A stretch of DNA of 64,000 nucleotides. It comes from Spirochaetales bacterium (GTDB lineage: Bacteria > Spirochaetota > Spirochaetia > SZUA-6 > RPPD01). Below are positions 8,429-62,703 of the stretch, one piece after another (positions within the stretch are counted from its first letter, which is position 1; each line of letters opens with the position of its first letter). The position numbers and the translations under genes were made by a program. The stretch lies in contig JAFGJO010000055.1 of assembly GCA_016929065.1 (NCBI GenBank), positions 401 to 64,400 of the forward strand. The letters run 5' to 3'. Below the pieces are notes generated by a model. It searched no databases. It was not told the origin of the DNA and saw only the letters and a program-made list of their open reading frames with translations.

Positions 8429-8511
8429 GTTATTCCTCTTTCCATAGTATAGAAGAGAGATTGTGCGGATTCAAACGAAAAACAGGATATGTTTAAAATA
8501 AACAGGGTAAT

Positions 8512-8540
8512 AAAAAACCCGGCTGTTGCCGGGCTTTTTA
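8512..8540. terminator. Bidirectional hairpin terminator
   Basis: aaaaaacccggc-tgtt-gccgggcttttt, perfect 6-bp GC stem flanked by A-run and T-run. Confidence 0.6.
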
Positions 8541-8589
8541 AAGAATTATCAATCAGCCTTAAAAAGAAGTTTCTTCAAGGGTATGTCAA

Positions 8590-9882
8590 TCAGGTTTCAT
8601 CCCATCCAGCAAGCCGTGCCCAGAGCCACCAGGCAGCATATGCTTTCATGTTTGCGTTGACCGAAACAGAATGTGCTGCCCCGCAATCATACCAGTCTGT
8701 GCCCTCTGTATGAGCATCCTGCCAGTCATACGCCCAGTTGGCATCGTTGTCAAGCGGGGTTGTTTCATCAGTGTATTCGGGTGTCCCGTCACCGTCGGCG
8801 TCATAGATACAACCGTCAGTGGGGTAGTGGTCGCCGTAGAAGGTGCCGTCGGGGTCATATGTCTCGATATCGGCAAAATCGAAGAGCCATTTATTGTTGT
8901 CGGTGCAGTACTGCCGGATCTGCTCATTGCGCAGATGCAAATTGCCTTCAGTTCCGGTCCCGTTAAGGTGCCCGGTCATATAAATAAAGGTGACATCCGG
9001 ATAATCCTCTTCCAGCTGCTCCATCAGGGAGAGGTAATTACTGATCATGGTTTCCTCTGACTGAGAGGATACCTGACCGCACCAGGACCACATAATCACA
9101 TTTATTTCGGCATTGGCGGGATTGTCCAGATATTCCCGTGTTTCCAGGTACCAGTTCTGCTGATGCCCGTTTGTTTCCCAGTCCGAAGCCAGATAGCCTG
9201 CATCGTGGTCCAGATCTCCGTCACCGTAACCGTCGCCTTCACGAAGATCGAGCGCTTCTCCACCACCGCCGCGATTCCAGTTGAATAATCCGGGAGTTCC
9301 TGTATATTGACTTTCACACCCGGTACCGTCGGCAAACCCGACAAGACCGGTCATGCCGTCCGTGAGCTGACTGCCGTGGGAAGTATGTCCATACCCGATA
9401 TGAAGCGCTGCTTTCGCAGCGAGGATTGCAGGGATCTCAAGATTTCCCTGACGTACCCAGTTAATCACTGAATGATCGGCAACCAGAGTGCCGGTTGCAG
9501 CAGCGGGCTCTGAGAGCGTGGTCACATTGCCGCCTGTTGATTCAGCTGAATCGCCTGCCGAATTGACCGCCCGGACCCGGTAATAATATGTGGAATTTTC
9601 TGACAATGTTCCGCGGTCGATAAATGAGGTTGTATTCGCAGCAGTGGTTATTTCAATAACGCTGGTGTACAGAGCATCTTCGCTCCGCGAAATGATAAAT
9701 GATTCCTCATCTGCTGAATTGTCCTGCCAGCTGACAAGTACACTGCACCATGAAATTGCGTCAAGGGCGACACTGCCCGGGGCCTGAGGTGGAGTTGCCG
9801 GCTGTTGCGCAGCCAGTCCGCAGGATACGGCCAGGATTAGTGAAACAACAATACAGATCATGTTTGCATTTTTCATAATCAT
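8590..9882 (-). CDS. Secreted lipoprotein with fibronectin type III domain and Asp/Gly-rich C-terminal domain
   Basis: Signal peptide with lipobox-like AVSCG. FN3 signature (W..Y.YRVRAVNSAGDS). Confidence 0.6.
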   Translation of the reverse strand: MIMKNANMICIVVSLILAVSCGLAAQQPATPPQAPGSVALDAISWCSVLVSWQDNSADEESFIISRSEDALYTSVIEITTAANTTSFIDRGTLSENSTYYYRVRAVNSAGDSAESTGGNVTTLSEPAAATGTLVADHSVINWVRQGNLEIPAILAAKAALHIGYGHTSHGSQLTDGMTGLVGFADGTGCESQYTGTPGLFNWNRGGGGEALDLREGDGYGDGDLDHDAGYLASDWETNGHQQNWYLETREYLDNPANAEINVIMWSWCGQVSSQSEETMISNYLSLMEQLEEDYPDVTFIYMTGHLNGTGTEGNLHLRNEQIRQYCTDNNKWLFDFADIETYDPDGTFYGDHYPTDGCIYDADGDGTPEYTDETTPLDNDANWAYDWQDAHTEGTDWYDCGAAHSVSVNANMKAYAAWWLWARLAGWDET

Positions 9883-9953
9883 TCCTTTTTTATCATTTTC
9901 TATTCTATATTAGCTATTTCCGCTTTGTACGACATATACCTTTTGGCATGTTT

Positions 9954-15753: not shown

Positions 15754-16130
15754 ATTTTTATCTTTGTTTATAAATTAATATGAAATCATTATCGTTGACA
15801 ACTTTTAACGGGAAAAACAGGATTTAATTTCCTGACCGTGGCTGCGTTTTTTCACAAATATACTGTGTCACACTGAGGTATTCGTCCCTCGACCAGCACG
15901 AAACAGTATGCCGGTATTTTAATAAAAGGGGGAAAATATGAAAAAGGCGCCTATTTTTATTTCCTGCTCCTTATGTTCAGTTTGATGCAGCAAACTGGAG
16001 TTCTTTTTTGATACGGTGACGGATGGCCTCAGGCTCGCTGCCAGTCGAAAATCATTGACACACCGTGGCGGAGTGACTCCCTTGTAGGGTCGCGGAGAGA
16101 AAAAGGCTGTTGGGTGCAGTAGTGCTCCTC

Positions 16131-16159
16131 TTGACATATCACTAAATTATCATTATTTT
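16131..16159 (+). promoter_or_regulatory. Putative sigma70 promoter of the phd-relE module
   Basis: TTGACA, 17 nt, TATTTT. RBS gagagg follows. Confidence 0.3.
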
Positions 16160-16181
16160 GATATTGAATGAGAGGTTGTTA

Positions 16182-16448
16182 ATGCCCAAAATAAGGCCGA
16201 TTTCAGATTTACGGAACAATTTTACACAGTTATCAAAAAGTCTCCACGAAGAGAATGAGCCGATTTTCCTCACAAGAAATGGTGTCGGTGACATAGTTGT
16301 TATGAGTATTTCATACTATGAGAAATTATTAGCCAAATACGAGGTTTATCAAAAATTAGATGCTGCAGAAACTGAAATTAAAGATGGGGCACTTGGAAAA
16401 GATTATAAAAGCGTAATTAGAAAAGCCAAAGCAAAAATTAATGCCTAA
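16182..16448 (+). CDS. Phd/YefM-family antitoxin
   Basis: MPKIRPISDLRNNFTQL... resembles YefM. Overlaps the downstream toxin by 8 nt. Confidence 0.8.
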   Translation: MPKIRPISDLRNNFTQLSKSLHEENEPIFLTRNGVGDIVVMSISYYEKLLAKYEVYQKLDAAETEIKDGALGKDYKSVIRKAKAKINA

Positions 16449-16749
16449 GAAAAAATATTCAGTTTTGATTTATCCACTTGCAGAGCAAGATATGGATGAG
16501 ATCATATTGTTTCTAAAAGAACTTTCATTGAAAGGGGCCAATGCTTTTTTAGATAAACTATCATCAAAACTGAACAAGCTTGAAGAATATCCAGAAATGT
16601 TTCCCCTCGTTAAGGATGAAAGACTTTCTGAAAAAGGATATAGAATAATTCCAGTTGATAATTACATCGTGTTCTACGTAGTAATGAAAAAAAATGTACA
16701 AGTCAGAAGGATGATTTATGGAAAAAGAAATTATTTCGATTTCCTGTAA
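16441..16749 (+). CDS. RelE/ParE-family toxin
   Basis: About 100 aa with a typical ParE/RelE C-terminal pattern. Coupled to the Phd gene. Confidence 0.8.
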   Translation: MPKKKYSVLIYPLAEQDMDEIILFLKELSLKGANAFLDKLSSKLNKLEEYPEMFPLVKDERLSEKGYRIIPVDNYIVFYVVMKKNVQVRRMIYGKRNYFDFL

Positions 16750-16830
16750 ATCTGCTGAGCACTATTGCGCCAAACGGGAAGCGCCAGGCTCTCGAAGCAT
16801 AACGCTGCTTGATGTTTAATAACCAATAAA

Positions 16831-16873
16831 AAAAACCGTCTGTGTACTTGAAAGCACAGGCGGCTTTTTATTG
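16831..16873. terminator. Bidirectional terminator between convergent toxin-antitoxin modules
   Basis: aaaaaaaaccgtctgtg-tacttgaaag-cacaggcggcttttt. Confidence 0.55.
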
Positions 16874-16919
16874 TCAGCGCAGCGTCAAGGCTTCTATTCG
16901 TTGGGTGAAGTGCGCTGAT

Positions 16920-17312
16920 TCAAAGGAATTTCAATCCATGCTTTTTGTAAAGGTCCAAATTTTCATCCAGACTGAGTAATGTGAAATCATTTTGAATTGC
17001 TTGCCAAATAATTGCCCTATCAAATGGATCTTTGTGTTCTATGGGAAGCTTGTAAAATGAAATAAGCTCTTGATTCTCATTTTTTTTGCAAACAAAAAAA
17101 CTATTTTCAACTTCATTGAAAAGTTGTTCTGGATTGATACCTTTAATATGAAGTTTCCCTATGCCGTATTTTATTGATATTTCCCATAAGCTAAATTGAC
17201 TATAATAAATTGTATGATCATTGTTTAAGAGAATCTTTTGGAATTTAGGTTTCAGCTTCTCAGGATTGGTAAAGGACCAAATCAAAATATGAGTATCGAC
17301 AATAAAATTCAT
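16920..17312 (-). CDS. vapC: PIN-domain VapC toxin
   Basis: N-terminal FIVDTHILIW PIN motif. About 130 aa. 4-nt overlap with the upstream antitoxin. Confidence 0.8.
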   Translation of the reverse strand: MNFIVDTHILIWSFTNPEKLKPKFQKILLNNDHTIYYSQFSLWEISIKYGIGKLHIKGINPEQLFNEVENSFFVCKKNENQELISFYKLPIEHKDPFDRAIIWQAIQNDFTLLSLDENLDLYKKHGLKFL

Positions 17313-17548
17313 GAAGTCAATAACTCGTCATCGGTAATAATGAAATCTTTGGAAAAGCTTACTTTTACCTTTCCCTTGAGGGATCCAAGTTTCCTGTTCT
17401 GGTTTTTCTTATATTCACTATAAGGAATAATGACGGCTATTGTTTCTTTTTTACGACCGAATGAAATAGCGATTTTATGTCCAGATTCAACTTCTTTTAA
17501 AAGAGAAGAAAGATGAGATTTTACTTCAGCAACCGGAATAGTTTTCAT
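17309..17548 (-). CDS. Phd/YefM-type antitoxin partner of VapC
   Basis: 79 aa. MKTIPVAEVKSHLSSLLKEV... Operonic. Confidence 0.75.
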   Translation of the reverse strand: MKTIPVAEVKSHLSSLLKEVESGHKIAISFGRKKETIAVIIPYSEYKKNQNRKLGSLKGKVKVSFSKDFIITDDELLTS

Positions 17549-17688
17549 ATGATAAAGTTAGCATAAGTGACCAACATAGTCAAGTATTATTTTCGGCCCC
17601 AGGAATTGCATACAACGTTCAGTGTTGGCGCCCGATCAGGGCGTGGAGGTTTACACAGTATTGAAGCTGCGGCGGGTAATAATAACGT

Positions 17689-17722
17689 TTGACAATACTA
17701 ACGTTAAGCAGTATTATACATT
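17689..17722 (+). promoter_or_regulatory. Promoter with overlapping palindromic operator for higBA (probably leaderless)
   Basis: TTGACA (17689-94), 17 nt, TATTAT (17712-17). Inverted repeat aatact..agtatt around the palindrome aacgtt. ATG at 17723. Confidence 0.45.
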
Positions 17723-18025
17723 ATGCTACAGTCTTTTCAAGATAAAGAAACGGAAAAGGTATGGAATCAAGAATACTCAAAAAAGTTACCAAGGGATATT
17801 CAAAGGGTTGGGTTAAGAAAACTGTTTATGCTGAACAGGGCAATAGATTTGGATGATTTGAAAATACCACCATCAAATTGCCTGGAAAAGTTGAAAGGCA
17901 ACAGGAAGGGGCAATTTAGTATCAGAATTAACCAGCAATGGCGAATATGTTTTAATTGGAAGGACGGGGAAGCATACAAAGTTGAGATTGTAGACTATCA
18001 TCAGGAGGATTGTAATGAAAGATAA
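17723..18025 (+). CDS. higB: HigB toxin (RelE/ParE superfamily)
   Basis: KGNRKGQFSIRINQQWRICFNW motif. Confidence 0.8.
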   Translation: MLQSFQDKETEKVWNQEYSKKLPRDIQRVGLRKLFMLNRAIDLDDLKIPPSNCLEKLKGNRKGQFSIRINQQWRICFNWKDGEAYKVEIVDYHQEDCNER

Positions 18026-18314
18026 AATACCAAATATATATCCAGGAGAAATCCTCGAAGAAGAGTTTATAAAGCCGATGAATATATCAGCCTACAGGCT
18101 TGCTAAAGAAACACATTTACCCGCAACAAGAATATCAGAAATATTGCACAATAAGCGGAAGATTACAGCAGACACGGCTTTAAGATTTTCAAAATATTTT
18201 GGTAATAGTCCGGATTTCTGGCTAGGAATACAAATCGAGTATGATTTACGCGAAGAGATGGCAAAGAATAAAAAAGAAATTAATCAGATAAAGAAAATCG
18301 AAATAGCTGTTTAG
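18015..18314 (+). CDS. higA: HigA antitoxin (XRE helix-turn-helix)
   Basis: Overlaps higB by 11 nt. Helix-turn-helix. Confidence 0.85.
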   Translation: MKDKIPNIYPGEILEEEFIKPMNISAYRLAKETHLPATRISEILHNKRKITADTALRFSKYFGNSPDFWLGIQIEYDLREEMAKNKKEINQIKKIEIAV

Positions 18315-18382
18315 GAATTAATTCCGGCTATAATTTCAGATTACTCCTGGTATACCCACAACTCTTCAATTAAAAAACGAAT

Positions 18383-18622
18383 ATGGAGGTAAACTATGAG
18401 AAAAAACATTATGATTTTTCAAATGCAATAAAAAACCCTTATATAAATAAACTCAAGAAGCAAATATCTATTCGATTGGATAATGATATCTTGGAATATT
18501 TTAAAGAATTATCAGAGGAGATTGGTATCCCTTATCAAAAGTTAATAAACTTTTATCTTGCCGAATGTGCTAGTAAACGTATCAAACCAAAGCTTGTCTG
18601 GAATAATAATGCAAAGGCATGA
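18383..18622 (+). CDS. BrnA-like antitoxin, N-terminally short, with no BrnT partner
   Basis: KNPYINKLKKQISIRLDNDILEYFKELSEEIGIPYQKLINFYL matches the BrnA C-terminal region as I remember it. The GGAGG sits better for an 11-codon out-of-frame ATG at 18397. Confidence 0.55.
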   Translation: MEVNYEKKHYDFSNAIKNPYINKLKKQISIRLDNDILEYFKELSEEIGIPYQKLINFYLAECASKRIKPKLVWNNNAKA

Positions 18623-18639
18623 CATCTAACGGTTGAGAG

Positions 18640-18795
18640 TGAATCTAAAGCTACAGGATATCGATTCAAAAAACAAGACCATTACTGTCAGGCAGGGGAA
18701 AAGATATAAAGACAGGCAGATTGTTTTTTCCGATACGCTGTATGGTATTCTGAAAGAGTACTACCGTATAGCCTCATTGAATCGGCAAAATTAAA
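18640..18795 (+). pseudogene. Tyrosine-recombinase (XerC/D, integrase) C-terminal fragment
   Basis: Translates to ...ITVRQGKRYKDRQIVFSDTLYGILKEYYR, a degraded copy of the recombinase GKGxKxRxVPL motif. 51 codons with no start. Confidence 0.4.
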
Positions 18796-19181
18796 CAACT
18801 GAATCCGTTTGAATATTTATATTACATGTATTCGAAAATACCGTACGCCAAAACACAGGAAGATTTTATTTCATTGTTATCGTTCAATCTTGATCCTGAA
18901 AAGATCAAGGGAGGGTAAGATTTAGCGCTTACAAACCTTTGATCGCAGTGTCTTTTTGATACTGCTGGGTAATTGTTTGATGCATAACATCCTCCTTGAA
19001 TTTGTTTCAAGGAGAATTCCAATCGATTTTAAATTTATTCATAAAAATGTCGCAAGATAAGCCGCCGCCGGCAGGCGGTTTTGTTCAACGGCAAGCGCCA
19101 GGTTGGAGCCGAAGGCGGAACGCAGGACGCGCAGTTAGGCGATGTATTTGATTTTTAAAACACAATATTATTTAACACTAA

Positions 19182-19976
19182 TCAAAAAGGTATACCATCA
19201 GGCTCTTTAGTTTTTGACTCATTATGAAATGACAGGAGATTCTTGTTGTTTTGAATCCATTGTATACCGTTTTTAGTAACTACATATGCTTTGTATTCTT
19301 CATTATTATATTCAGTATCAGTCAATATCTTAGTTGCTAAAAAACCTTTTTCTTCCAATGCTGTCACACCAAGAGCTACAGCAATATCATTAAAATTTAA
19401 ACTGAGCATTTTTTGTTTGAGCTGATATTGAGATATACCTCCATCCATTGTTGTCCAATATGCAAATGCGGTAGATAGAATTGCAACCTCATAATCTTTG
19501 AGATCAGATTGTTGTTCAGTTTCCGGTTTTAAAGTTTGAACACTAGACATTCTTGAGTAATCTTTTAACTCATTTTTAGTCCATTTTATGATATTTTTTT
19601 CTAATTCATCATATCCGCTTCTGGAATCAGTACGGTAATATATTACTGGTCTATGTTGAATATCAAAAGGCAGACGACTTCTTTTTGCTTTATCGCATAA
19701 AATAACAGTGGGTCTAAAAAGAGCCAATGCATATCCTAATTCTAACCATACATTTGGATTGTCTTCACTAACTTCGGCGATACAAATTGCTGCAGAACGA
19801 ATATTTGATTCGATTTTTTCAATTATAGGATTTAAACCTAAAATATCGTCTGCTCTTTGAGGATCAACATTTGCCTTTAATAATGCAGGTTTAATAGTTT
19901 CTATATATCTTCTATCATAAGGCCCATTATCAAAGTGTTGGATAACAAAACAAAGTGGTTTGGTATTTTCACTCAT
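19182..19976 (-). CDS. Nucleoside 2-deoxyribosyltransferase-like domain fused to a C-terminal winged-helix-like domain
   Basis: ATG at 19976 with aaaGGAG 5 nt upstream (the track's longer start is TTG). NDT-like beta1 CFVIQHFDNG and catalytic-region pattern NVWLELGYALALFRPTVIL. AT-rich context. Confidence 0.65.
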   Translation of the reverse strand: MSENTKPLCFVIQHFDNGPYDRRYIETIKPALLKANVDPQRADDILGLNPIIEKIESNIRSAAICIAEVSEDNPNVWLELGYALALFRPTVILCDKAKRSRLPFDIQHRPVIYYRTDSRSGYDELEKNIIKWTKNELKDYSRMSSVQTLKPETEQQSDLKDYEVAILSTAFAYWTTMDGGISQYQLKQKMLSLNFNDIAVALGVTALEEKGFLATKILTDTEYNNEEYKAYVVTKNGIQWIQNNKNLLSFHNESKTKEPDGIPF

Positions 19977-20364
19977 ATCATGCTCCTTTAACAATAATTA
20001 TTATTGCTTTAAAATAACATCAAACATATCACCCATCTCCCGGTATCTGCACAAATCTTTACCTGAAAATCATACTCAGATTAACTATCCCCTGCAAGCA
20101 AAAAAAAAGTGGTTATAAATTGGTATTTACGTGGATGATTGAAAGTGTTCCCTAACAAATTATGGAACACTTTCAAACCAATAGGAGTGACCTCAAGGCC
20201 ATTTAAACCGAGCTCTTGAATTTACAGCCAGCTTGACCGCATGGTATTGTATGGATATCAGTTATCCCGTCTCGAACCAGTTTCGAGGCTATTCGCGAAA
20301 ACGCGCGCGATTGAACGCGTGCGTGGGTATTCGTAGTACACTCATCCTGTCTCTTTGTTGCTGT

Positions 20365-50322: not shown

Positions 50323-53307
50323 ATGCGGAAAATCCTGATTCTTCTCATGGGAACAGCACTTATTCTGTTTGCAGCATTTGCCTGTGATCCAAAGACATCC
50401 GGTAAAGATGATATTACGGTTTCAACTGAGTCCTTGGCAAATGGATTTAAAGGCACTGTCTATACACCAGTGCAGCTTGAGGCAGCCGGCGGAGACGATA
50501 CTGCATATTCATGGCAGGTCACCTCCGGGACAATGCCTGCGGGTTTGACGCTTTCAGCAGCCGGAGAGATTTCCGGAACACCAACCGAGGACGGAGAATT
50601 TATCTTCACGGTTCAGGTGAGTGATGCCATAAATAATCCGGGGACACAGGAGCTTTCAATTCAGGTTGACGCCATTGCAATCAGCCCCGCAACACTCACA
50701 GCAGCGCAAAAAGACGAAATATATTCGGCGACGATCAGTGCATCCGGCGGACAGGCTCCCTATACCTTTACACTTGATGCCGGCAACGTTCCCTCCGGTT
50801 TGGGCCTTGCTGTTGACGGTTCAATCACCGGTACGCCGGATACCTTTGAAGTGTGTGATTTTACCGTGCTCGTGACTGACAATAATGGCGCATACAATGA
50901 GCATGATTATACTCTTTCGGTCATTTCCGGTGTTCCCGTCGAGATCGATACCACATCCTGTGCGAACGGGTTTATCAACGGTACGTACTCAGAAACAGTT
51001 TCTGCTTCGGGTGGACAGGGGACCTATACCTGGACAATTTCTGCCGGCACTCTGCCTGCAGGGCTTTCAATAAATCCATCAACCGGTGAAATATCGGGAA
51101 CTCCTTCCAGTGCGGGTTCATCAACCTTTACGGTCCGGGCGACCGATGATGTTGAAACAGCGAACTATGGCGAACAGGAATTCACCATCGTCATCCGCTC
51201 CGCAGTGAGTGTCACCACTACTGTCTGTGATAACGGGTTTGAAGGCGGCTCCTATTCCGAATCCGTCGCGGCAACCGGCGGTTCGGGGACCTATACCTGG
51301 AGCATTGCTTCCGGCGCCCTGCCGACAGGATTGAGCATTAATCCTTCAACCGGTGAAATATCCGGTACCTCATCTGCAGCGGGAACATTCAATTTTACGG
51401 TCAAAGCAGAGGATAGCGAAAACCCGGCGAATTCCGACAATCAGGCATTGTCAATTGTGATTGGTACGGCAGTTTCGATTACCACCGCCACGCTCCCCTC
51501 GGTCGGCGGCAATATCGTGTATTCCGAGACATTGGGTAAAACAGGAGGAAGCGGAAGCTATACATGGTCGATCGATTCAGGATCGCTGCCGCAGGATGTG
51601 ACCCTTGGTTCTTCGAATGGTATTATTTCCGGGTATCCGGGAAAACCGGGGACCTATACATTTACCATTCGCTGTGCAGACAGTGCGAACTCGAATAATT
51701 ATGACACCCAGTCATTATCGATCGAAGTAACCAATTTTGAATGGACCTTGATGATTTACCTTGACGGTGATAATAATCTGGAACCGTTTGCATTCGCAGA
51801 TATCAATGAAATAGAAGCCGCAGACCTCCAGGGATATGGAATTAAAGTGATTGTCGTCATGGATGGAAATGGCGGTTATTACAGCGAGACAAGTGCATTC
51901 AGCGGCACGCGGCTGTATGAAATAACCTATGATTCTGCCGGTGATGCCACAACGACAGGTATACAGTCCACACGGCTCGCATCAACAGCGCTTGGATTGT
52001 CTGCTACCGGCACGCAGGAGCTCAACATGGCAGATCCCGCAACAGCAACAAATTTTATTACGTTTGTAAAATCAAATTATGCAGCCGATGATTATTCTCT
52101 GATTTTCTGGAACCATGGCGACGGGTGGAGGAGTAAATCTGAAGATGAAAAGAAGGATGTCTGGAAAGCTGTCTGTTCTGACGATACATCATCAGATATT
52201 TTATCCACAAAAGAAATCGGTCAGATTGTCTCCGGGCAGGGACTGTCGCTTATCGGGTTTGATGCATGTCTGCTCGGCATGATGGAAGTAGCATACGAAC
52301 TCAAGGCAGATGCCGAAGTCATGGTTGGCTCCGAGGAGAATGAACCGGGTGACGGCTGGGAATATGATACCCTGCTCAATAATTTCAAGGCAAAAGGAAC
52401 AAAAGAGGCAGAAGACCTGGGTGAATCAATTGTCACTGCGTATCAGACACGATACGCGGCGACTGCAGGGACGACTCTTTCTGCTATCAGACTGTCAGAA
52501 ATGGATAATCTGGTTTCAGCCTTGGAAACATTTATAACAGGATGTAACTCGGCAGGGTTTGAAACAGTGTATGCAGCGATAAATTCAGCCGGTTCGGTAC
52601 AGAGATTCGGCGGAGATGGTGAATTTATGTCGCATCTCGATATATGGGACCTTGCAGATACACTTTCTTCTGTTGCGGGAGCAAGTGCATTAAAGACCGC
52701 GGTCGAAGATGCAGTCATACAAAATTTCCATTATGGAACAGCGGTCGCCAATGCGCATGGAATCGCCTTGTATTTTCCGATGAACAATGATGTACTCGGT
52801 GTGCCGTTCCAGGCATACAGCACAGCGTACCTGGATTTTGCAGGAGACGGAAACTGGGATGAGTTTATTCATACAATCTGGCGGGGAAATGACGCGTACG
52901 AACCGAATGACAATTTCCTGATTGCCGCGACAACCATATCTGATGGTATTAACTACAACGCATATATCCAGTTTCCCGGTGATGAAACAACCGAAGTCTG
53001 GGCAGACCAGGATATTTATAAGTTTTATGTTACCGCAAACGGTACATTTACATTCAATCTTTCTGCGAACGGGAACTCGGATATTGACGCAGTCATTCTT
53101 CTTATTCATGAATCGGATACAGGAACTGTTCTCACCGGTGCAGACAGCACCTATATGTACGGCGATGAATCATTTTCGTACAACACAACGACAGGAGCAG
53201 GAACAGGCTGGTATTATGTAATTGTGATGTCCTATGGACTGGATGAATACGACAGAACCGATCCCTATACAATCAATGTGGTGCAGGGAACTGCGACGAT
53301 TCAGTAA
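50323..53307 (+). CDS. Secreted multidomain protease: 5-6 putative-Ig (He_PIG-like) repeats, C11 clostripain-like peptidase, C-terminal PPC domain
   Basis: Repeated ..SASGG.G.YT..L..G.LP.GLS.. units. C11 motifs LMIYLDGDNNLE, His FWNHGDGW and Cys GFDACLLG. PPC-like tail. Confidence 0.8.
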   Translation: MRKILILLMGTALILFAAFACDPKTSGKDDITVSTESLANGFKGTVYTPVQLEAAGGDDTAYSWQVTSGTMPAGLTLSAAGEISGTPTEDGEFIFTVQVSDAINNPGTQELSIQVDAIAISPATLTAAQKDEIYSATISASGGQAPYTFTLDAGNVPSGLGLAVDGSITGTPDTFEVCDFTVLVTDNNGAYNEHDYTLSVISGVPVEIDTTSCANGFINGTYSETVSASGGQGTYTWTISAGTLPAGLSINPSTGEISGTPSSAGSSTFTVRATDDVETANYGEQEFTIVIRSAVSVTTTVCDNGFEGGSYSESVAATGGSGTYTWSIASGALPTGLSINPSTGEISGTSSAAGTFNFTVKAEDSENPANSDNQALSIVIGTAVSITTATLPSVGGNIVYSETLGKTGGSGSYTWSIDSGSLPQDVTLGSSNGIISGYPGKPGTYTFTIRCADSANSNNYDTQSLSIEVTNFEWTLMIYLDGDNNLEPFAFADINEIEAADLQGYGIKVIVVMDGNGGYYSETSAFSGTRLYEITYDSAGDATTTGIQSTRLASTALGLSATGTQELNMADPATATNFITFVKSNYAADDYSLIFWNHGDGWRSKSEDEKKDVWKAVCSDDTSSDILSTKEIGQIVSGQGLSLIGFDACLLGMMEVAYELKADAEVMVGSEENEPGDGWEYDTLLNNFKAKGTKEAEDLGESIVTAYQTRYAATAGTTLSAIRLSEMDNLVSALETFITGCNSAGFETVYAAINSAGSVQRFGGDGEFMSHLDIWDLADTLSSVAGASALKTAVEDAVIQNFHYGTAVANAHGIALYFPMNNDVLGVPFQAYSTAYLDFAGDGNWDEFIHTIWRGNDAYEPNDNFLIAATTISDGINYNAYIQFPGDETTEVWADQDIYKFYVTANGTFTFNLSANGNSDIDAVILLIHESDTGTVLTGADSTYMYGDESFSYNTTTGAGTGWYYVIVMSYGLDEYDRTDPYTINVVQGTATIQ

Positions 53308-55406: not shown

Positions 55407-56732
55407 ATGAAAAAAAACAAGCATCATGAGAAAGCCTGGGTGGTGAGTGTCCGGATGGGCCTTGGGCATCAGCGGGCAGCCTTTGCACTTGCCCATCTGG
55501 CAGGTGACGGCGTGCTCAATGTCGGAGAACCAGTTACCTGTGAACCCGACGAACTCAAATTGTGGCATAATATTACCAATGGATATGAGACCATTTCCCG
55601 GATGAAAAATGTGCCGATTATCGGGAACGGGTTATTTAATCTGATGAATGCCCTTCTGTATATTCCGCCGTTTTACCCGATCCGGGATCTTTCAAAACCG
55701 AACATGCAGGCGAAGTTTATCCGGGGATATCTCGAAAAGGGAATGGGGAAAAAACTGATGGAAATTGTGGAAACAAGACCGCTTCCCATGATTTCCACCT
55801 ATTTTGTTCCATCTTTGATTGCCGATTTTTACAATTACAGCCGGAACTATTGCGTGGTCACCGATGCGGAAATAAACCGCGCATGGGTTCCGGTTGATCC
55901 GACGGCCAGTAAAACAATCTATCTTGCCCCGTGCAGCAGAGCCATGAACCGCCTCAAGGAATACGGGGTGCGTGATGACAAAATATTTCTCACCGGATTT
56001 CCCATTCCCCGCGAGCTTTTGGGCAGTGAAAAACTTGAAATACTGCTTCCGGACCTGGGCCAAAGGCTTCGTCAGCTTGATCCCGAAAACAGGTTCTGGC
56101 CTTTGCACGGCAGCAGTGTGGAACATTTTATCGGCCATCGCAATGTCCGTCAAAAAATGAAACGGCCGCTGACCATATTGTATGCAGTGGGCGGGGCGGG
56201 CGCCTTGTGGGAAACAGGGCTTGCCGCGGTAAAAAGCCTGAAAAAACAGATTATGAGAAAAGAGCTCCGGTTTGCATTGGCACCCGGTGTGCGGCCGGAA
56301 ATCTACAACAAATATGTCGAGGGGCTCCATGAATTGCGCATTCCACGCGAGCTGGTCCCGATCATTTACTCCCCGGATACAGTTAATTATTTCGAACTGT
56401 TCACCCGTTTTATCCGCGAAACCGATATTCTGTGGACAAAACCCAGTGAACTGGTTTTCTACAGCGCATTGGGACTGCCGATTATCATGACCGAACCGGT
56501 TGGTGCACAGGAAGAGTATAATAAAAAATGGCTTCTTGAGATACAGGCCGGCATGTCACAGGAAGATCCTGCGTATGCGAACGAGTGGCTGCTGGATTTG
56601 CTTCATTTTGGGAGATTTGCCGAAAGCGCCTGGGACGGTTTTTTGAAAGCCAGAAAATTCGGTATTTATAAAATAGAAGAAATCCTGCGGACGGGTACCA
56701 TGATTCGGGAGTCGTCTCCGCTTCGTCGATAA
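55407..56732 (+). CDS. Hypothetical GT-B-fold glycosyltransferase-like protein
   Basis: N-terminal GLGHQRAAFALAHL resembles the GT1/GT28 G-loop. Weak. Confidence 0.45.
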   Translation: MKKNKHHEKAWVVSVRMGLGHQRAAFALAHLAGDGVLNVGEPVTCEPDELKLWHNITNGYETISRMKNVPIIGNGLFNLMNALLYIPPFYPIRDLSKPNMQAKFIRGYLEKGMGKKLMEIVETRPLPMISTYFVPSLIADFYNYSRNYCVVTDAEINRAWVPVDPTASKTIYLAPCSRAMNRLKEYGVRDDKIFLTGFPIPRELLGSEKLEILLPDLGQRLRQLDPENRFWPLHGSSVEHFIGHRNVRQKMKRPLTILYAVGGAGALWETGLAAVKSLKKQIMRKELRFALAPGVRPEIYNKYVEGLHELRIPRELVPIIYSPDTVNYFELFTRFIRETDILWTKPSELVFYSALGLPIIMTEPVGAQEEYNKKWLLEIQAGMSQEDPAYANEWLLDLLHFGRFAESAWDGFLKARKFGIYKIEEILRTGTMIRESSPLRR

Positions 56733-56792: not shown

Positions 56793-58769
56793 ATGAATAA
56801 AATACCCAATAATCCATACATCGTTGGAAATCCGATCAAAACAAAGGAGATGTTTTTCGGACGCGAAGACGATTTCATGTTTGTCACCCGAAAAGTGGGT
56901 GTTGAAAAGGCGAACCAGGTTATTATTTTCTGCGGTGAGCGTCGATCGGGAAAAACGTCAATTCTGTTTCAAATTCTTTCCGGACAGCTGGGTGAGTTTT
57001 TTTTGCCGATTCTTGTTGATATGCAGATCCTTGCCGGGCTGAAAAGCGATTTGGAGTTTTTTCGGGCAGTGCTTGAGGTGGGATGTGAGAGCCTGAAGAT
57101 ACCGGGACTCACGCTTGAAGCTGTGGAAAAGGAAGCGCGCGAAAAAACCGTGGAAAGAATTTTTGAGGCATTTCTGGCTTTTGTTGCCAAATCCTGTCCC
57201 GGAAAGGTTGTTTTGTTTTTGCTTGATGAATATGAGCTTATCGAGGCGAAAATAAAGGAAGGGAGCTTGAGTGAATCGGTCATTCATTACCTTTCGGGAG
57301 TGCTTGAGAGCAAATACAGGATTTCATTTATTTTTACCGGCTCAACCAACCTGGAAAACAGAAAAGTCGATTACTGGAAATCATTGCTCGGAAAATCCAT
57401 TTATCGGAAAATATCATATTTATCAGAACATGACACCCGGAGGCTGATCACCGAGCCTCTGAAAAACCATATTGATTACCCGGATGAAGTAATTGACCGG
57501 ATTTACCGGCTCACCGGCGGACAGCCCTTTTATACACAGGTAATGTGCCAGAATCTTGTTGACATTCTCATGGAAGAAGGCCGGAATGATCCGGAAAAAA
57601 AAGATCTCGAATCGGTTGTGAAGGATATTATCGAGAATCCGCTGCCGCAGATGATCTATTCATGGAACAGCCTTGGGGACTGGATAAAATTTACCATGTC
57701 CTCTCTTGCCGGAGCGTGTCACACCTCAAAAGACTGGGCGGATGCACAGTCGGTGTATCAGTATCTTTCCAAAAGTAAAATCGCCCTGACGTTTAAACGG
57801 GAACGGCTGAATGTGTTTCTGGAGGAAGCGTATCAAAAAGAATTTCTGCAGAAAAACGATCAGAGCGAATACTGTTTTAAAATGGATTTGTACCGCCGGT
57901 GGATCCGCAAGGAACATTCGATATGGAAAGTGATCAAGGAAGTCAAACTGGAGATAAAAAAATCGGCGGGAATTAAAAAGATCGTCGCGATCGCGGCGGC
58001 GGCGGGGATCCTTGTCGGGATCGGCATCGTGATTACATTCATTATTATTAATGGCGGCTCACAGCATGCGGTCACTGTAGAAGACGGTCAAATTCGCGGT
58101 TTGAAGGTCATTTCAAACCAGGCGCCGTTCCAGGTGATGATTGATGATGCCCTTACGGTTACCAGCCAGGGGCTGGAAAACGAAAAGGAACTCGTTCTGC
58201 CCCCGCTTTTGCCGGGAAAGCATGTTTTTGTGTATCAGAATCCACGGACCAAAGAGCGCAGAGTGGATACTGTTGAAATCAAGGCAGGTATGAATGATCT
58301 CTCTATCCGGTTTCTGCAGGAAGATCCCGGTTCGAATATGTCAGCAGATGCAGGGTCATTGTTTGTGTCCTCCTCTCCGGACGGAGCAAAAATATATATC
58401 GATGGGAAATATCATGCTACATCTCCCAAAGTGATCAGCAATATCACGGCAGGCCGGCACAAAGTAACCGTTGAGCGCGAAGGGTACAGAACGGAAGAGT
58501 TCTGGGTTGATGTAACTGTTCAGGGAATCACCGAACGTAAAATACAACTATCCCCTGTTTATGGTTATGTGTCTTTTAAGATACTCCCCACGGCAAAAAT
58601 ATATCTTGACGGTGCATTTTTGGTTGAAGTACCCATTGTCGAGCCGAGCCGGATACAAACCGGAAAACATACTCTGACAATTGTCAATGAAAGTATGGGA
58701 TACCGGGAGGATATTCCCATTGTTGTCAAAGAGGGAGAGACAGTTCCCATCGAAAGGAAATTGCGATGA
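56793..58769 (+). CDS. Membrane-spanning P-loop NTPase: cytoplasmic archaeal-ATPase (PF01637)-like module, one TM, two periplasmic PEGA domains
   Basis: FFGREDDF followed by Walker A GERRSGKTSIL and Walker B LLDEYE. TM segment IVAIAAAAGILVGIGIVITFIII. PEGA patterns (..PDGAKIYIDGK...G.HKVTVEREGY). Confidence 0.75.
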   Translation: MNKIPNNPYIVGNPIKTKEMFFGREDDFMFVTRKVGVEKANQVIIFCGERRSGKTSILFQILSGQLGEFFLPILVDMQILAGLKSDLEFFRAVLEVGCESLKIPGLTLEAVEKEAREKTVERIFEAFLAFVAKSCPGKVVLFLLDEYELIEAKIKEGSLSESVIHYLSGVLESKYRISFIFTGSTNLENRKVDYWKSLLGKSIYRKISYLSEHDTRRLITEPLKNHIDYPDEVIDRIYRLTGGQPFYTQVMCQNLVDILMEEGRNDPEKKDLESVVKDIIENPLPQMIYSWNSLGDWIKFTMSSLAGACHTSKDWADAQSVYQYLSKSKIALTFKRERLNVFLEEAYQKEFLQKNDQSEYCFKMDLYRRWIRKEHSIWKVIKEVKLEIKKSAGIKKIVAIAAAAGILVGIGIVITFIIINGGSQHAVTVEDGQIRGLKVISNQAPFQVMIDDALTVTSQGLENEKELVLPPLLPGKHVFVYQNPRTKERRVDTVEIKAGMNDLSIRFLQEDPGSNMSADAGSLFVSSSPDGAKIYIDGKYHATSPKVISNITAGRHKVTVEREGYRTEEFWVDVTVQGITERKIQLSPVYGYVSFKILPTAKIYLDGAFLVEVPIVEPSRIQTGKHTLTIVNESMGYREDIPIVVKEGETVPIERKLR

Positions 58770-59683
58770 ATGAGATGTTGAATAAAAAAATATTTTTTTT
58801 TCTTGTTGTATTTTTTATTTCAGTTTTATCAATATCTGCTCAGGAACCCGTTTCTGCAATAACCGGAACAGCGGAGCGGGTTAATCAAATTCAGCAGTTG
58901 TATCGAAGTGCAGAGTATGCACAATGTCTTCAGCTTATTGATACTGCGATCAAACAGCATGAGGACGGCAGTGTGGGACTCCCCTTTTTTCAGCTGGCGC
59001 GGGTCTATATATTCAAAGCGCTTGTTGTCTATGCATACCGTGAAGAGGGGTTTCAGGAAACCGTAAAGGAATTACTCCTGAAAGCGGTTTCTACTGATAT
59101 CAATTTTGAATTTGATGATTATGCAATTATCCCGACGTACATTGTCGATATGTTTGTAAAAATAAAACGCGAGTATCTGGAGCAGTTTTCAAAAACCACA
59201 CGCCGGCACACGCTTGGTGTGTACGGTTCGTTGACCGCACTGCCGACACTTCTTGATAATCCGGAATATTTAAAGCCGGGGATTCATTATTCATTCAATT
59301 TTTCAGAGTCCTTTATGCTGCTCGCCGATGTTGAATTCCCCGCATCCGGAAATATCTTCAACACTATTATGGGGCGTGCAGGGGTTATCTGGTTCCCCTC
59401 ATTTAAAATCGAAACAGTATCGATGGGGCTCGGAATGATGTATGCAATGAGAGTTGAGCGCAATGCGAATACACTTCATGTTTTTTCTGTAGAAGGATAC
59501 GGGGAACTGATTTTACGGTTTGGGTTGGGGTTGGCTGCCAGCATCGAGCTGGTCCGCTTTGACCTGAGTGTTGGAGATTACCCGAGCAATTTTAGCAGCG
59601 GTGGTGCAGTCAGTTTTTTTCAGAGTGACTCTGCTCAGCTCTCGTTTGCCAATTTGCGCATATACATATTTTTTACATTTTAA
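58766..59683 (+). CDS. Secreted protein with C-terminal outer-membrane beta-barrel-like region
   Basis: ATGA overlap with the upstream gene. Signal peptide. C-terminal amphipathic strands ending ...IFFTF. Confidence 0.55.
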   Translation: MNEMLNKKIFFFLVVFFISVLSISAQEPVSAITGTAERVNQIQQLYRSAEYAQCLQLIDTAIKQHEDGSVGLPFFQLARVYIFKALVVYAYREEGFQETVKELLLKAVSTDINFEFDDYAIIPTYIVDMFVKIKREYLEQFSKTTRRHTLGVYGSLTALPTLLDNPEYLKPGIHYSFNFSESFMLLADVEFPASGNIFNTIMGRAGVIWFPSFKIETVSMGLGMMYAMRVERNANTLHVFSVEGYGELILRFGLGLAASIELVRFDLSVGDYPSNFSSGGAVSFFQSDSAQLSFANLRIYIFFTF

Positions 59684-59692: not shown

Positions 59693-60694
59693 ATGGTAAA
59701 TCCGGAACTGCCGGTTGTCGATCCGAATCAGTTTATCGGCCAGCGGAGTACTGTCAGAAGAATCTTTTCCCGAATCGGCGCCGAGCGTCCCCAGTCGGTG
59801 GCTGTCATTGGCGGGCGAAAGATTGGAAAAAGTTCCCTGCTGAATTATTTGAATACTGCACAGGCCCAGCAAGAAAATTTAACTGATTTGGAAAATTATA
59901 TTTTTCTTCACTTTTCTCCCCAAAATGACCCTGAGTTGAGTGTCGATGTTCTCCTGCACCGGATCCTTCTCGATCTGGGTGCGACAAACGGGGGGAATGA
60001 AAGTCTTTATACAACGCTGCAAAGGACTGTTGAACAGCTGCATCATTCGGGAAAGAAAATTGTTTTCATGTTTGATGATTTTCATAATACAACGACCAAT
60101 GAAAATTTTCCCCTTGAGTTTTTTTCGTTTCTGCGGTCGCTGGCAAATAATTATAACCTTGCGTATGTTACCAGTTCCTATCTTGAACTGCAGAAGCTGT
60201 GTGTGGCAAAAGATATAGAAGAATCTCCGTTTTTCAATATTTTTACAAACGTACCTGTCGGACTCTTAAAACACGACGAGGCTGCAAGCCTTTTTTCCCG
60301 ACTTACCGGGCTGGATGAGCAGGAAGTTGAACGTGTCGTTACATGGTGCGGTCCGTCCCCGTATGTAGTGAAACTGATCGCTTCCCGGATTAATGATGCG
60401 GTGTTAAACCTGAATAATCTGGAAAAAGAATTTTTACCGCTTCTTTCAGACTATTTTACCATGATTGTATCTGTTGTTCCCCGGGCTGCATTCAAGCCGT
60501 TAAAAGAACTCGTAAAAGGAAAACAGCCCGGGCAGCACGAATCGTATCTTCTCCAGCCGCTTGTCCGGCACCGGTTTCTTGAGGAAGATGAAGACCAGAT
60601 CATGTTTTTCTCGGAGGCATTCAAGCTTTTTATCATGAAAAAGCTGACACCGGAAATGCTTGTCGGCCACGAGAATAAAACCAGACAGGAGTAA
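59693..60694 (+). CDS. Stand-alone paralogous archaeal-ATPase-like P-loop NTPase
   Basis: FIGQRSTV...GGRKIGKSSLLNYL, FMFDDFH, SPFFNIFT, C-terminal winged-helix-like tail. aaGGAG RBS. Confidence 0.7.
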   Translation: MVNPELPVVDPNQFIGQRSTVRRIFSRIGAERPQSVAVIGGRKIGKSSLLNYLNTAQAQQENLTDLENYIFLHFSPQNDPELSVDVLLHRILLDLGATNGGNESLYTTLQRTVEQLHHSGKKIVFMFDDFHNTTTNENFPLEFFSFLRSLANNYNLAYVTSSYLELQKLCVAKDIEESPFFNIFTNVPVGLLKHDEAASLFSRLTGLDEQEVERVVTWCGPSPYVVKLIASRINDAVLNLNNLEKEFLPLLSDYFTMIVSVVPRAAFKPLKELVKGKQPGQHESYLLQPLVRHRFLEEDEDQIMFFSEAFKLFIMKKLTPEMLVGHENKTRQE

Positions 60695-60700: not shown

Positions 60701-62464
60701 ATGCCGAATATTGATGATCTTCTTCGAAAAAGAAAAGAACTTATGGAAGAAATCGACCAGGAGATCAGATCCCGGTATACCAAAGCAGTAACCCTTCTTT
60801 TTACCGATATTGTGGGGTCGACCCGGTTTTTTGAGGAAATGGGCGATATCGCAGGTCGGCAGATGATTCAGACGCATAATGACCTGCTGTTTCCTGTGAT
60901 TGACAAATTCGGGGGACGGGTGATCAAGACAATCGGTGATTCCATCATGGCCAGCTTTGACGACTCAAAGCAGGCTGTAAGCGGCGCAGTGACGATGCAG
61001 AAGGCATTGGAAAAATACAACAAGGCGACCGATGACAGGCATAAAATACGCGTCCGGATGGGACTGCATTTTGGTGAAGCGGTGGTCGATGAAAAAGACC
61101 TCTTTGGCGATATGGTCAATACTTCCGCCCGGGTGGAAGCGCGGGCGAATGCAGATGAAATCATTATTTCCCATGCATTAAAGGAACAGATTGAGGGACA
61201 TGATTTTCCCATGGTGTTTCTGGGAACCGATGTGGTTAAAGGCAAGAAAGAGAAAATTGATTTTTTTCTGGTAAACTGGAATTCCCGGGATGAAAAGGAA
61301 ATTGTCGAGTCGTGGAAAACACGCATCACCATCACAATTACGCATGAAAAAAGCGCAGCAAAGGCGCCCGGTGTGGTAGTCAAAAAAAATATTGCCATAT
61401 CCCCGGATATTCCCCCGCTCACGCGGAAGGGAAATCCGTATCTGAACCGTGTCATGCTTCCGCATCCTTCTCTGTTTTTCGGAAGAAAAGCGCTGGTAAA
61501 ACGGATCTTTTCAAGGATAGAGTCGGATCGGCCTCAGTCAATTTCTGTTGTCGGCGAGCGCAGGATTGGAAAATCGTCTCTGCTGAATTTTCTGAATTTT
61601 CCAAGCACCCGGGCAGCGCTGATGTCTGCACCCGAAAAATATATTTTTACATTTGTCGATTTTCAGCAGGTCCGGGCCCAGGCGGCAAGTGAAATTGTCG
61701 GAATCATTTTCCGGGAAATGGAGCGGACTCTCTGTGACGGCATTTCAATTAATGTTGAACCGGATTTTGACGGAATGAAGACACTGGTTGAAGCAGTCAC
61801 TTCTGCGGGGTTCCGCCTGATTTTGTTTTTTGACGAGTTTGAATCGGTGACGAAAAATGAGCATATAAAGCCGGATTTTTACAGTTTTTTCCGCTCCCTG
61901 GCCAATAATTACCCGCTCGCATTTGTGACTGCAAGCGGACGAAATCTCAAGGATATGTGTGTTACCCACGAAATTTCCGATTCCCCTTTTTTCAATATCT
62001 TTACTGTTCAGAATGTCGGGCTGTTCAGCGAAAAGGAGGCAGCTGAATTAATCGCCGGACCGTCTGTAGAATCCAGGGTGCCGCTTGCCCCGCTGACAGA
62101 GTCAATTATTGCTGAAGCAGGCTGTTATCCGTTTTTTTTGCAGATGATGTGCGGTGCGTGGTTTGAATATCTGGATGCAGAAGGGGCAATGGCGGAAGAA
62201 TTCACCTCGAAACCGGCACCCAAAGAGGTGATTGCCCTTTTTAAAGAAGAAGCAGAACCTCATTTCGAATATATTGCAGAGACTTTTTCAAAAGAAGAAG
62301 AAAAGCTGTGCAGACAAATTGCAGATCAGAAGCCGGTCGCAACAGATTCACCGGTTGCAGAACAGTTGTTGCGGCGGGGGTATTGTATCGAGGATGAGCA
62401 GCGGGGACTGCGCCTGTTCGGCAGTCAGTTTGAATTGTTTTTGAAAAAATATTATTCACGGTGA
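60701..62464 (+). CDS. Class III nucleotidyl cyclase fused to a paralogous P-loop NTPase
   Basis: N-terminal LLFTDIVGST...KTIGDSIMASF...GDMVNTSARVE. Then FFGRKALV...GERRIGKSSLLNFL, FFDEFE, SPFFNIFT. Confidence 0.75.
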   Translation: MPNIDDLLRKRKELMEEIDQEIRSRYTKAVTLLFTDIVGSTRFFEEMGDIAGRQMIQTHNDLLFPVIDKFGGRVIKTIGDSIMASFDDSKQAVSGAVTMQKALEKYNKATDDRHKIRVRMGLHFGEAVVDEKDLFGDMVNTSARVEARANADEIIISHALKEQIEGHDFPMVFLGTDVVKGKKEKIDFFLVNWNSRDEKEIVESWKTRITITITHEKSAAKAPGVVVKKNIAISPDIPPLTRKGNPYLNRVMLPHPSLFFGRKALVKRIFSRIESDRPQSISVVGERRIGKSSLLNFLNFPSTRAALMSAPEKYIFTFVDFQQVRAQAASEIVGIIFREMERTLCDGISINVEPDFDGMKTLVEAVTSAGFRLILFFDEFESVTKNEHIKPDFYSFFRSLANNYPLAFVTASGRNLKDMCVTHEISDSPFFNIFTVQNVGLFSEKEAAELIAGPSVESRVPLAPLTESIIAEAGCYPFFLQMMCGAWFEYLDAEGAMAEEFTSKPAPKEVIALFKEEAEPHFEYIAETFSKEEEKLCRQIADQKPVATDSPVAEQLLRRGYCIEDEQRGLRLFGSQFELFLKKYYSR

Positions 62465-62505: not shown

Positions 62506-62703
62506 ATGAATTGTCAAAACAAACCACAAAATAAAACACAATGCAATTGCACCTATCCGGGATGCAGCAGGCACGGCGTCTGCTGTGAATGCATCCAGTA
62601 CCACCGCCGAAGCAATGAACTCCCTGCCTGTTTTTTCACTGCACAGGAAGAGCGTACATACAATCGCAGTATTTCTTTTTTTGTAAAAAACCGTTCACGG
62701 TAA
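62506..62703 (+). CDS. Small Cys-rich protein (C-x-C...C-x3-G-x-C-C-x-C)
   Basis: 65-aa ORF with 8 Cys in an ordered pattern. Confidence 0.4.

Follow-up and report, generated by a model that had tools for sequence, protein, structure and literature searches.

A membrane-anchored nSTAND2-like ATPase with PEGA outer domains as the predicted receptor subunit of a conserved four-gene cassette

Our analysis of a 64,000-nucleotide stretch of DNA from a Spirochaetales bacterium (assembly GCA_016929065.1, contig JAFGJO010000055.1, positions 401 to 64,400 of the forward strand; hereafter the window, in whose coordinates all positions are given) revealed a gene for a predicted single-pass membrane protein that joins a STAND-like P-loop ATPase module to PEGA domains on the far side of the membrane. 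On balance, and with modest confidence, we favor the reading that this protein is the transmembrane receptor subunit of a four-gene STAND-type module and that it would activate a cyclase through a STAND hetero-oligomer. The finding reaches beyond one gene, to a conserved, widespread, and uncharacterized STAND-based transmembrane signaling cassette. An earlier sequence-only reading covered the target gene alone; it is the operon partners that make this gene interpretable. The members of the operon, with lengths in amino acids (aa), are as follows.

56793..58769, + strand: target gene, whose predicted product is the receptor subunit, a membrane-anchored nSTAND2-like ATPase of 658 aa that carries PEGA on its outer side
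58766..59683, + strand: operon gene 2, encoding a secreted protein of 305 aa in which a signal peptide is followed by a helical domain for the periplasm (aa 29-142) and an 8-stranded beta-barrel predicted for the outer membrane; C-terminus ...NLRIYIFFTF
59693..60694, + strand: operon gene 3, encoding a stand-alone nSTAND2 ATPase of 333 aa (Pfam nSTAND2, E 1.5e-29; Walker A intact)
60701..62464, + strand: operon gene 4, encoding a class III nucleotide cyclase-nSTAND2 protein (Pfam Guanylate_cyc, E 7.3e-21; nSTAND2, E 3.6e-44)
60776-61273, + strand: cyclase part of gene 4, aa 26-191 (Pfam Guanylate_cyc)
61433-62461, + strand: nSTAND2 part of gene 4, aa 245-587 (Pfam nSTAND2)

The operon thus runs from the membrane ATPase through the secreted protein with its OmpA-like barrel and the stand-alone nSTAND2 ATPase to the adenylyl cyclase-nSTAND2 fusion. 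The stop codon of the target gene overlaps the start of gene 2 (ATGA), and the next two gaps measure 9 and 6 nucleotides (nt). The target gene is predicted to be co-transcribed and translationally coupled with the three genes downstream; a promoter and terminator scan stayed at shuffle level (15 versus 11.9 ± 3.3; 12 versus 9.5 ± 2.8).

The open reading frame (ORF) list gave two candidate starts for the target ORF (56781/56793..58769, + strand). Alignment with 27 full-length orthologues revealed a common N-terminal pattern, M-x-x-I-x-x-NPYIVGNP, and we therefore assign the start to the ATG at 56793, yielding a protein of 658 residues with the N-terminus MNKIPNNPY. This protein is identical to an NCBI entry from a Spirochaetales metagenome-assembled genome that is annotated as 'PEGA domain-containing protein'. 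Its parts are listed below, with AlphaFold2 confidence given as the predicted local distance difference test (pLDDT).

56793..57947, + strand: cytoplasmic module, aa 1-385, with an NPYIVGNP/FFGRE N-terminal motif, a P-loop NTPase, a helical GxP region (G243-x-P245), and a winged helix
56934..56960, + strand: Walker A, GERRSGKTS, aa 48-56 (G48, R50, R51, G53, K54, T55, and S56 invariant in 28 sequences)
57213..57236, + strand: Walker B, LFLLDEYE, aa 141-148 (D145, E146, Y147, and E148 invariant in 28 sequences)
57981..58049, + strand: single transmembrane helix, aa 397-419, 23 residues (hydropathy, AlphaFold2, and 28 orthologues)
58086..58316, + strand: outer beta-sandwich 1, divergent, aa 432-508 (AlphaFold2 strands, pLDDT ~90)
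58344..58559, + strand: PEGA domain 2, aa 518-589 (Pfam PF08308, E 5.5e-16, 58.7 bits, cut-off 20.8)
58560..58766, + strand: PEGA domain 3, aa 590-658 (hhalign to repeat 2 and AlphaFold2 sandwich)

The target has only one strongly hydrophobic segment (Kyte-Doolittle 19-residue peak, 2.73), which is covered in the AlphaFold2 model by one long helix (392-419). A hydrophobic segment stands at the same place in all 28 aligned orthologues (minimum peak 1.89), in which the 15 flanking residues hold on average 4.9 Lys and Arg on the ATPase side versus 1.8 on the far side. We predict a single-pass membrane protein with its N-terminus in, its C-terminus out, and its ATPase in the cytoplasm, because of the positive-inside rule, the lack of a signal peptide, and the need of the ATPase for cytoplasmic ATP. 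The sequence-only reading had proposed just such a receptor-like layout (cytoplasmic NTPase, one transmembrane segment, extracytoplasmic PEGA), on which hydropathy, flanking charges, and the AlphaFold2 model agree; it had also placed a 23-residue hydrophobic helix after the ATPase, which we find at aa 397-419, and had called for a comparison of the transmembrane-PEGA tail among homologues. More than 100 homologue clusters, drawn from independent assemblies, show the architecture at full length (34-57% identity, 96-100% coverage). This conservation, together with the hydrophobic segment in every aligned orthologue, led us to reject the idea that the protein arose by a frameshift or assembly fusion of two genes, or that its helix is a chance hydrophobic stretch, and we regard such an artifact as having next to no chance of being true. 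One relative might be taken to speak for it: at locus L007 (5099-11044), one gene encodes the ATPase (386 aa) and another the PEGA part (297 aa). The nSTAND2 and cyclase genes of that locus are fragmented too, indicating that L007 is either a decaying locus or the product of an assembly error.

The outer part of the target (aa 421-658, ~238 residues) forms three beta-sandwiches after the helix in the AlphaFold2 model (432-505, 520-585, and 590-656). Against the Pfam PEGA model PF08308 the whole protein scored 63 bits (E 2.4e-17; gathering threshold 20.8). Repeat 3 on its own reached 15.1 bits, which is under the cut-off, and matched repeat 2 by hhalign (96.9%, E 1.5e-10, 60 columns). Sandwich 1 had no Pfam match and aligned weakly by hhalign to repeats 2 and 3 (25-56%), and it is not demonstrably PEGA. 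The two PEGA domains claimed earlier were thus recovered, repeat 2 by Pfam and repeat 3 by its hhalign match to repeat 2, along with one extra sandwich. Within the spirochete family, mean pairwise identity was 0.57 for the cytoplasmic module versus 0.29 for the outer domain; such strong conservation of a module beside a diverging outer domain is usual in receptors.

For the cytoplasmic module, Pfam ATPase_2 (cut-off 33.2 bits) scored 32 bits when run on the full protein; on the isolated N-terminal module it scored 35.4 bits, above the cut-off. The AlphaFold2 model of the target (mean pLDDT 86.5) shows helices at 231-308 and a winged-helix-like unit at 318-374 in its cytoplasmic part, and Foldseek ranked archaeal Orc1/Cdc6 best for this part (E 7e-12 to 1e-10; 11-14% identity), with eukaryotic ORC and Cdc6, clamp loaders, and a plant NLR (tomato NRC3) among the lower-ranked matches; ~400 columns were aligned both with Orc1/Cdc6 and with NRC3. 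An NTPase base followed by a helical lid and a winged helix is the layout common to ORC-type AAA+ and STAND proteins, and the fold by itself cannot tell these two apart. The motifs add to this comparison. As in STAND proteins, the module has a P-loop with conserved Walker A and Walker B (hhhhD[DE]) motifs and a GxP helical domain followed by a winged helix; the G243-x-P245 of the helical region is invariant in 28 sequences, and we take it to correspond to the 'GxP' motif of STAND proteins in the sense of Leipe et al. 2004. By Pfam and AlphaFold2, the C-terminal repeat sensor of STAND proteins (TPR, WD40, or LRR) is missing, and the transmembrane helix and beta-sandwiches stand there instead. 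Candidates for an arginine finger in the module include R190. At the sequence level, the target showed no membership of NACHT or NB-ARC, and a scan against NCBIfam gave solely matches far under threshold.

The relationship of this module to nSTAND2 was judged by profile-profile comparison, as a local jackhmmer search pooled the target family with nSTAND2 and its E-values cannot part them. Pfam nSTAND2 (PF20702) gave 11.5 bits on the target module (E 0.18), under the gathering threshold of 24 bits. By hhalign, the target family matched the neighboring nSTAND2 family at 99.4% (E 1.4e-21); the alignment has 328 columns and begins at the NPY motif, reaching as far as the winged helix. We therefore place the target ATPase as a probable divergent sister clade of nSTAND2 that lies outside the present Pfam boundary and forms the third paralogue in the operon.

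The other two paralogues, genes 3 and 4, are adjacent nSTAND2 genes, and the pair is kept in Spirochaetota relatives. G40, G45, K46, and D128 of gene 3 are invariant in 26 orthologues, and the Walker A and B motifs are kept in all three ATPase families (target, gene 3, and gene 4). Likewise, D36, K76, D80, D137, N140, and R144 of the gene 4 cyclase are conserved in 24/24 cyclase-bearing orthologues; we presume these to be two metal-binding Asp, the substrate-specifying Lys and Asp, and the transition-state Asn and Arg. The closest solved homologues are the mycobacterial cyclase Ma1120 and then LipJ. The domain is predicted to be a catalytically competent class III adenylyl cyclase, for which the substrate-defining Lys and Asp predict ATP as the substrate, and cyclic AMP (cAMP) is the probable output of the operon.

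The product of gene 2 has a hydrophobic N-terminus, a conserved C-terminus (NLRxYxFxTF), and no Pfam match. A homologue search gave 5 matches only, so that a shallow alignment (5 sequences) stands behind its AlphaFold2 model, in which a helical domain is followed by eight strand elements (pLDDT 70.7). Foldseek matched this model to the OmpA, NspA, Ail, OprH, OmpX, and OprF barrels (probability ~1.0, E ~1e-4), and we predict, with moderate confidence, a small OmpA/OmpX-like outer-membrane barrel.

We found the same four genes, in the same order, at three further Spirochaetota loci (L001, L002, and L004; 46-57% identity), with flanking genes unlike those of the window. Flanks vary among the window, L001, and L002 but are the same in L001 and L004, whose target proteins are each 46-47% identical to that of the window. 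The full four-gene set is present in 15/19 Spirochaetota loci with a barrel homologue, the rest being mostly cut by contig ends, and the operon is conserved in at least 15 species-level Spirochaetota genomes. Directly downstream of the cassette, on the - strand, L001 (13838-14833) and L004 (13781-14740) carry genes for an HtrA-like trypsin-PDZ periplasmic protease and a DUF4097 protein, which are not in the window. Another contig, L008, holds two receptor paralogues (1255-3696 and 8001-9914), one with an FGE-sulfatase outer domain and the other with PEGA. Between these paralogues lie genes for a TonB-dependent receptor and a kinase-nSTAND2 protein, and a gene for a small PEGA-only protein follows.

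The family extends well beyond this phylum. A pattern-based scan of 185,579 species genomes (one genome per species) confirmed 218 relatives in Spirochaetota, Calditrichota, Acidobacteriota, Cloacimonadota, Eisenbacteria, Krumholzibacteriia, and other groups, mostly uncultured, and an exhaustive search among representatives at 50% identity yielded 812 proteins with E <= 1e-30; each of the best 150 spans the whole 385-residue module. The ATPase module was found on either side of the transmembrane helix: a hydrophobic segment follows within 90 residues in 189/192 proteins with an N-terminal module, and precedes within 100 residues in 32/38 proteins with a C-terminal one. Membrane tethering is thus the rule within the subfamily of the target. 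The topology had been called unusual for this NTPase family, which is true of STAND ATPases in general and, as these counts indicate, does not apply within the subfamily.

Attachment of the membrane segment to either end of the module argues for clustering as the probable mode of action, and against a fixed piston-like coupling. It also bears on the possibility that the cassette is an energizing machine working from the inside out, in which ATP would drive a change in the PEGA domains and the barrel, as in envelope assembly, secretion, or gating. Such a machine would account for intact ATPase motifs and for envelope-spanning parts in one operon, where an inner-membrane ATPase with periplasmic reach sits beside a barrel. 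We nevertheless consider it quite improbable, since a module that lies N- or C-terminal to the helix has no conserved fixed mechanical coupling, the constant partner is nSTAND2 with a signaling output domain, and many lineages lack the barrel. STAND and ORC-type ATPases, the latter being the source of the Orc1/Cdc6 fold matches, are moreover established as switches, not motors.

The outer domains vary more widely than the module. Among 40 non-Spirochaete relatives, we identified CarboxypepD_reg in 22, Reg_prop in 17, and PEGA in 10, along with Y_Y_Y, Peripla_BP_6/ANF_receptor, and FGE-sulfatase. This replacement of PEGA by bona fide ligand-binding domains (Reg_prop/Y_Y_Y and periplasmic binding proteins) speaks against a passive role of the target, in which the PEGA region would merely tether an nSTAND2-cyclase complex to peptidoglycan or the outer membrane while the soluble paralogues sense a cytoplasmic signal. 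A tether of this kind would fit the description of PEGA as peptidoglycan-associating and its position after a transmembrane segment in iSTAND systems (PMC7159879). The soluble nSTAND2 proteins likewise have no obvious sensor repeats by Pfam, a point in favor of the tether. Set against it are the outer domain, which diverges as sensors do, and the ATPase and winged-helix module, which is intact and extremely conserved and would be needless in an anchor; we therefore judge a purely passive anchor to be rather unlikely.

The receptor genes keep company with nSTAND2. An nSTAND2 gene lies no more than 5 kb away in 50/58 testable loci (86%; testable loci having at least 4 kb on both sides). All 59 fusion partners carry nSTAND2, joined to Pkinase in 37, Guanylate_cyc in 24, Sigma54_activat in 1, and SpoIIE (PP2C) in 1; in the Calditrichota version, kinase, cyclase, and nSTAND2 are in one protein. 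In Calditrichota and at locus L009, the gene after the receptor encodes a signal-peptide protein with a C-terminal Phe, and these proteins in the barrel slot have no detectable kinship to the spirochete barrel.

Locus L045 and ~30 other Acidobacteriota loci (e.g., L046, L051, and L057) encode receptors of ~1,400 aa with a C-terminal ATPase module, arranged as signal sequence, two CarboxypepD_reg domains, Reg_prop propeller, Y_Y_Y, transmembrane helix, and ATPase module. They are paired with a gene for a ~650-aa Ser/Thr kinase-nSTAND2 protein, which amounts to a two-gene version of the system. On a Cloacimonadales chromosome (L052, 400-9995), tandem receptor paralogues of 1491 aa and 667 aa come after a cyclase-nSTAND2 gene and a stand-alone nSTAND2 gene, a gene order inverted relative to that of Spirochaetota.

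In the mechanism that we propose for the receptor, the periplasmic domains would respond to a cue from the envelope or from outside the cell, with the barrel protein or the cell wall as possible intermediaries. Once clustered by ligand, or after exchanging its nucleotide, the receptor ATPase would then nucleate an ATP-dependent hetero-oligomer with the two soluble paralogues, much as a sensor NLR recruits helper NLRs, and the oligomer would gather the N-terminal cyclase domains and switch on cAMP synthesis. The active site of class III cyclases is shared between the two halves of a dimer, which is why proximity could activate them. Where other phyla have this receptor module, the output under its control would instead be a Ser/Thr kinase, a PP2C phosphatase, or a sigma-54 activator. 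The architecture suggests that signaling runs outside-in, because homologues carry ligand-sensing outer domains and the partners carry output domains. The sequence-only reading had called the topology inside-out signaling; topology alone gives no direction, and the sensor-type domains of the homologues and the outputs of the partners point the opposite way.

The same assembly could serve a different biological role. If the cassette were an anti-phage or conflict system, the membrane ATPase would sense an invader at the envelope and the nSTAND2 pair would raise a cyclic-nucleotide alarm, as in Pycsar and CBASS, leading to growth arrest or death; this version, which shares the assembly mechanism with the receptor reading and differs from it in biological role alone, seems to us unlikely, if still the strongest competitor. 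It draws on the original definition of nSTAND2, in which the family forms the core of a two-gene operon predicted to counter invaders (PMC8195603), on the standing of STAND ATPases as established phage sensors (Avs literature, as cited in 10.1101/2023.09.22.558884), and on the receptor paralogue of L008 whose FGE-sulfatase outer domain has a fold used by hypervariable sensors. The cyclase domain of gene 4 showed a weak, generic cyclase-level similarity to the PycC models of Pycsar in PADLOC-DB v2 (best E 2.3e-9). In the same database, genes 1 and 2 matched no defense model, and genes 3 and 4 gave only marginal PDC-S27 matches in the ATPase region (E ~5e-3). The cassette is free of toxin and effector genes (HEPN, TIR, nuclease, or pore), its alternative outputs are regulatory (kinase, PP2C, and sigma-54 activator), and its three ATPases are intact, whereas one of the described nSTAND2 pair is eroded. 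The flanks common to the diverged L001 and L004 loci may point to vertical inheritance rather than a mobile island.

Several points weigh against the receptor reading that we prefer. PEGA is not known to have a ligand, which also counts in favor of the tether, and the direction of signaling is read from comparative architecture only. No conserved gene for a cAMP receptor or effector was found in the cassette (window, L001, L002, and L004), 8/58 testable loci are without an adjacent nSTAND2 gene, and the barrel model is moderately confident at the pLDDT, alignment depth, and Foldseek E-value given above. In the literature, PEGA is treated as peptidoglycan-associating, and so possibly as an anchor rather than a sensor (Kaur et al. 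2020, PMC7159879), and the authors who defined nSTAND2 see in its operons a means of conflict with invaders rather than housekeeping signaling (PMC8195603).

A broader proposal, which we put forward tentatively and hold to be less probable than not, is that of an undescribed, phylum-spanning class of transmembrane signaling in which a STAND-ATPase receptor would nucleate a hetero-oligomeric nSTAND2 signalosome, and this assembly would turn on its output (cyclase, Ser/Thr kinase, PP2C phosphatase, or sigma-54 activator) by induced proximity. This would be a bacterial counterpart of sensor/helper NLRs that reads extracytoplasmic ligands, with an outer-membrane barrel as a trans-envelope sensor in Spirochaetota and Calditrichota. 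Transmembrane signaling in bacteria usually runs through histidine kinases, chemoreceptors, Ser/Thr kinases, membrane cyclases, and anti-sigma factors. If our proposals are true, a STAND-type ATPase switch with interchangeable outputs would add a modular signaling route, and the NLR-like principle of oligomerization would extend from cytoplasmic immunity to transmembrane sensing. Proteins of the family are at present annotated only as "PEGA domain-containing protein" or "predicted ATPase"; with so compact an operon, the predictions are directly testable.

The surroundings of the operon in the window include two long genes upstream.

50323-53307, + strand: secreted protein of 994 aa containing five Ig-like repeats (He_PIG), domains of the PKD and Y_Y_Y-like types, and a clostripain domain (Peptidase_C11, E 1.4e-55)
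55407-56732, + strand: 441-aa protein directly upstream of the target, with DUF6938 and weak similarity to DUF6937 and MGDG_synth

The 441-aa DUF6938 protein may be glycosyltransferase-like. Both genes were rejected as parts of the system, as they are not kept beside the cassette in L001, L002, and L004. Just after the operon lies an ORF for a cysteine-rich peptide of 65 aa (62506-62703, + strand), and the 1.3 kb beyond it contain no long ORF on either strand. Elsewhere in the window, positions 16001-20000 have a G+C content of 0.34-0.36 versus ~0.45 in the rest, and this stretch could be foreign or specialized DNA.

A literature search found no description of the target family or of the cassette, and phrase searches found no paper coupling PEGA with STAND. 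A membrane-associated STAND protein is not unprecedented, because iSTAND proteins with a transmembrane segment and PEGA have been reported, and the known targets of hypermutation include transmembrane NACHT proteins that carry lectin domains in the periplasm (10.1101/2023.09.22.558884). Of the systems described so far, the nSTAND2 two-gene operon comes closest (Kaur, Iyer, Burroughs and Aravind, eLife 2021, PMC8195603; PF20702); with it the present cassette shares an adjacent bona fide nSTAND2 pair, one member carrying a variable N-terminal output domain, and a proposed hetero-oligomer of paralogues. The present cassette has two further components, a paralogue anchored in the membrane and a secreted protein with a barrel. 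In the described pair, one partner has eroded NTP-binding motifs and the output is GT4 or HEPN, whereas here Walker A and B are conserved in both partner families and the output is a cyclase, kinase, PP2C, or sigma-54 activator. The nSTAND2 neighborhood tables of that study contain neither a PEGA nor a Spirochaete entry.

Similarly, the iSTAND ternary vWA-MoxR systems with a transmembrane segment and PEGA, OmpA, or PASTA place a STAND-type component by the membrane, followed by a transmembrane segment and then PEGA outside, and in their authors' interpretation the cell wall is what this PEGA contacts (Kaur et al., eLife 2020, PMC7159879). Those systems depend on MoxR and vWA and have an inactive STAND, with PEGA as an effector domain; the present cassette has no vWA or MoxR gene, its ATPase is intact, and PEGA occupies the sensor position.

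The Rv0386-type mycobacterial cyclase-ATPase-HTH (helix-turn-helix) proteins, PknK, and the TOMM kinase/cyclase fusion (TIGR03903) resemble gene 4 in having a cyclase and/or kinase N-terminal to a STAND-type ATPase; gene 4 matched TIGR03903 and TIGR04510 weakly, far under the family cut-offs (22 versus 705 bits). Such fusions are single soluble polypeptides with TPR or HTH tails, whereas the sensing part of the present system is a separate membrane protein. The acidobacterial relatives recall the hybrid two-component sensors of Bacteroides in having a periplasmic Reg_prop propeller and Y_Y_Y before the transmembrane helix. Their transmitter is a STAND-like ATPase with a separate kinase-nSTAND2 protein, not a histidine kinase with a receiver, and the window protein itself has PEGA, not Reg_prop. 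As for archaeal Orc1/Cdc6, the AAA+ base, lid, and winged helix match at the E-values and low identity given above. Orc1/Cdc6 has no transmembrane helix, whereas the winged helix of the target lies beside the membrane, with no sign of a role in DNA replication.

Finally, the cassette resembles the sensor/helper NLR pairs (NAIP-NLRC4 and plant sensor NLR-NRC) and bacterial Avs in the layout of NTPase, helical region, and winged helix, and the model of the target matches NRC3. The sensors of the NLR and Avs systems are soluble and recognize cytoplasmic ligands through LRR, TPR, or WD40, where the target has a transmembrane helix and periplasmic domains. In NLR pairs, a ligand-bound sensor paralogue nucleates an oligomer of helpers, whose N-terminal domains are activated by proximity; by analogy, we infer that this sensor/helper logic would carry over to the present cassette.

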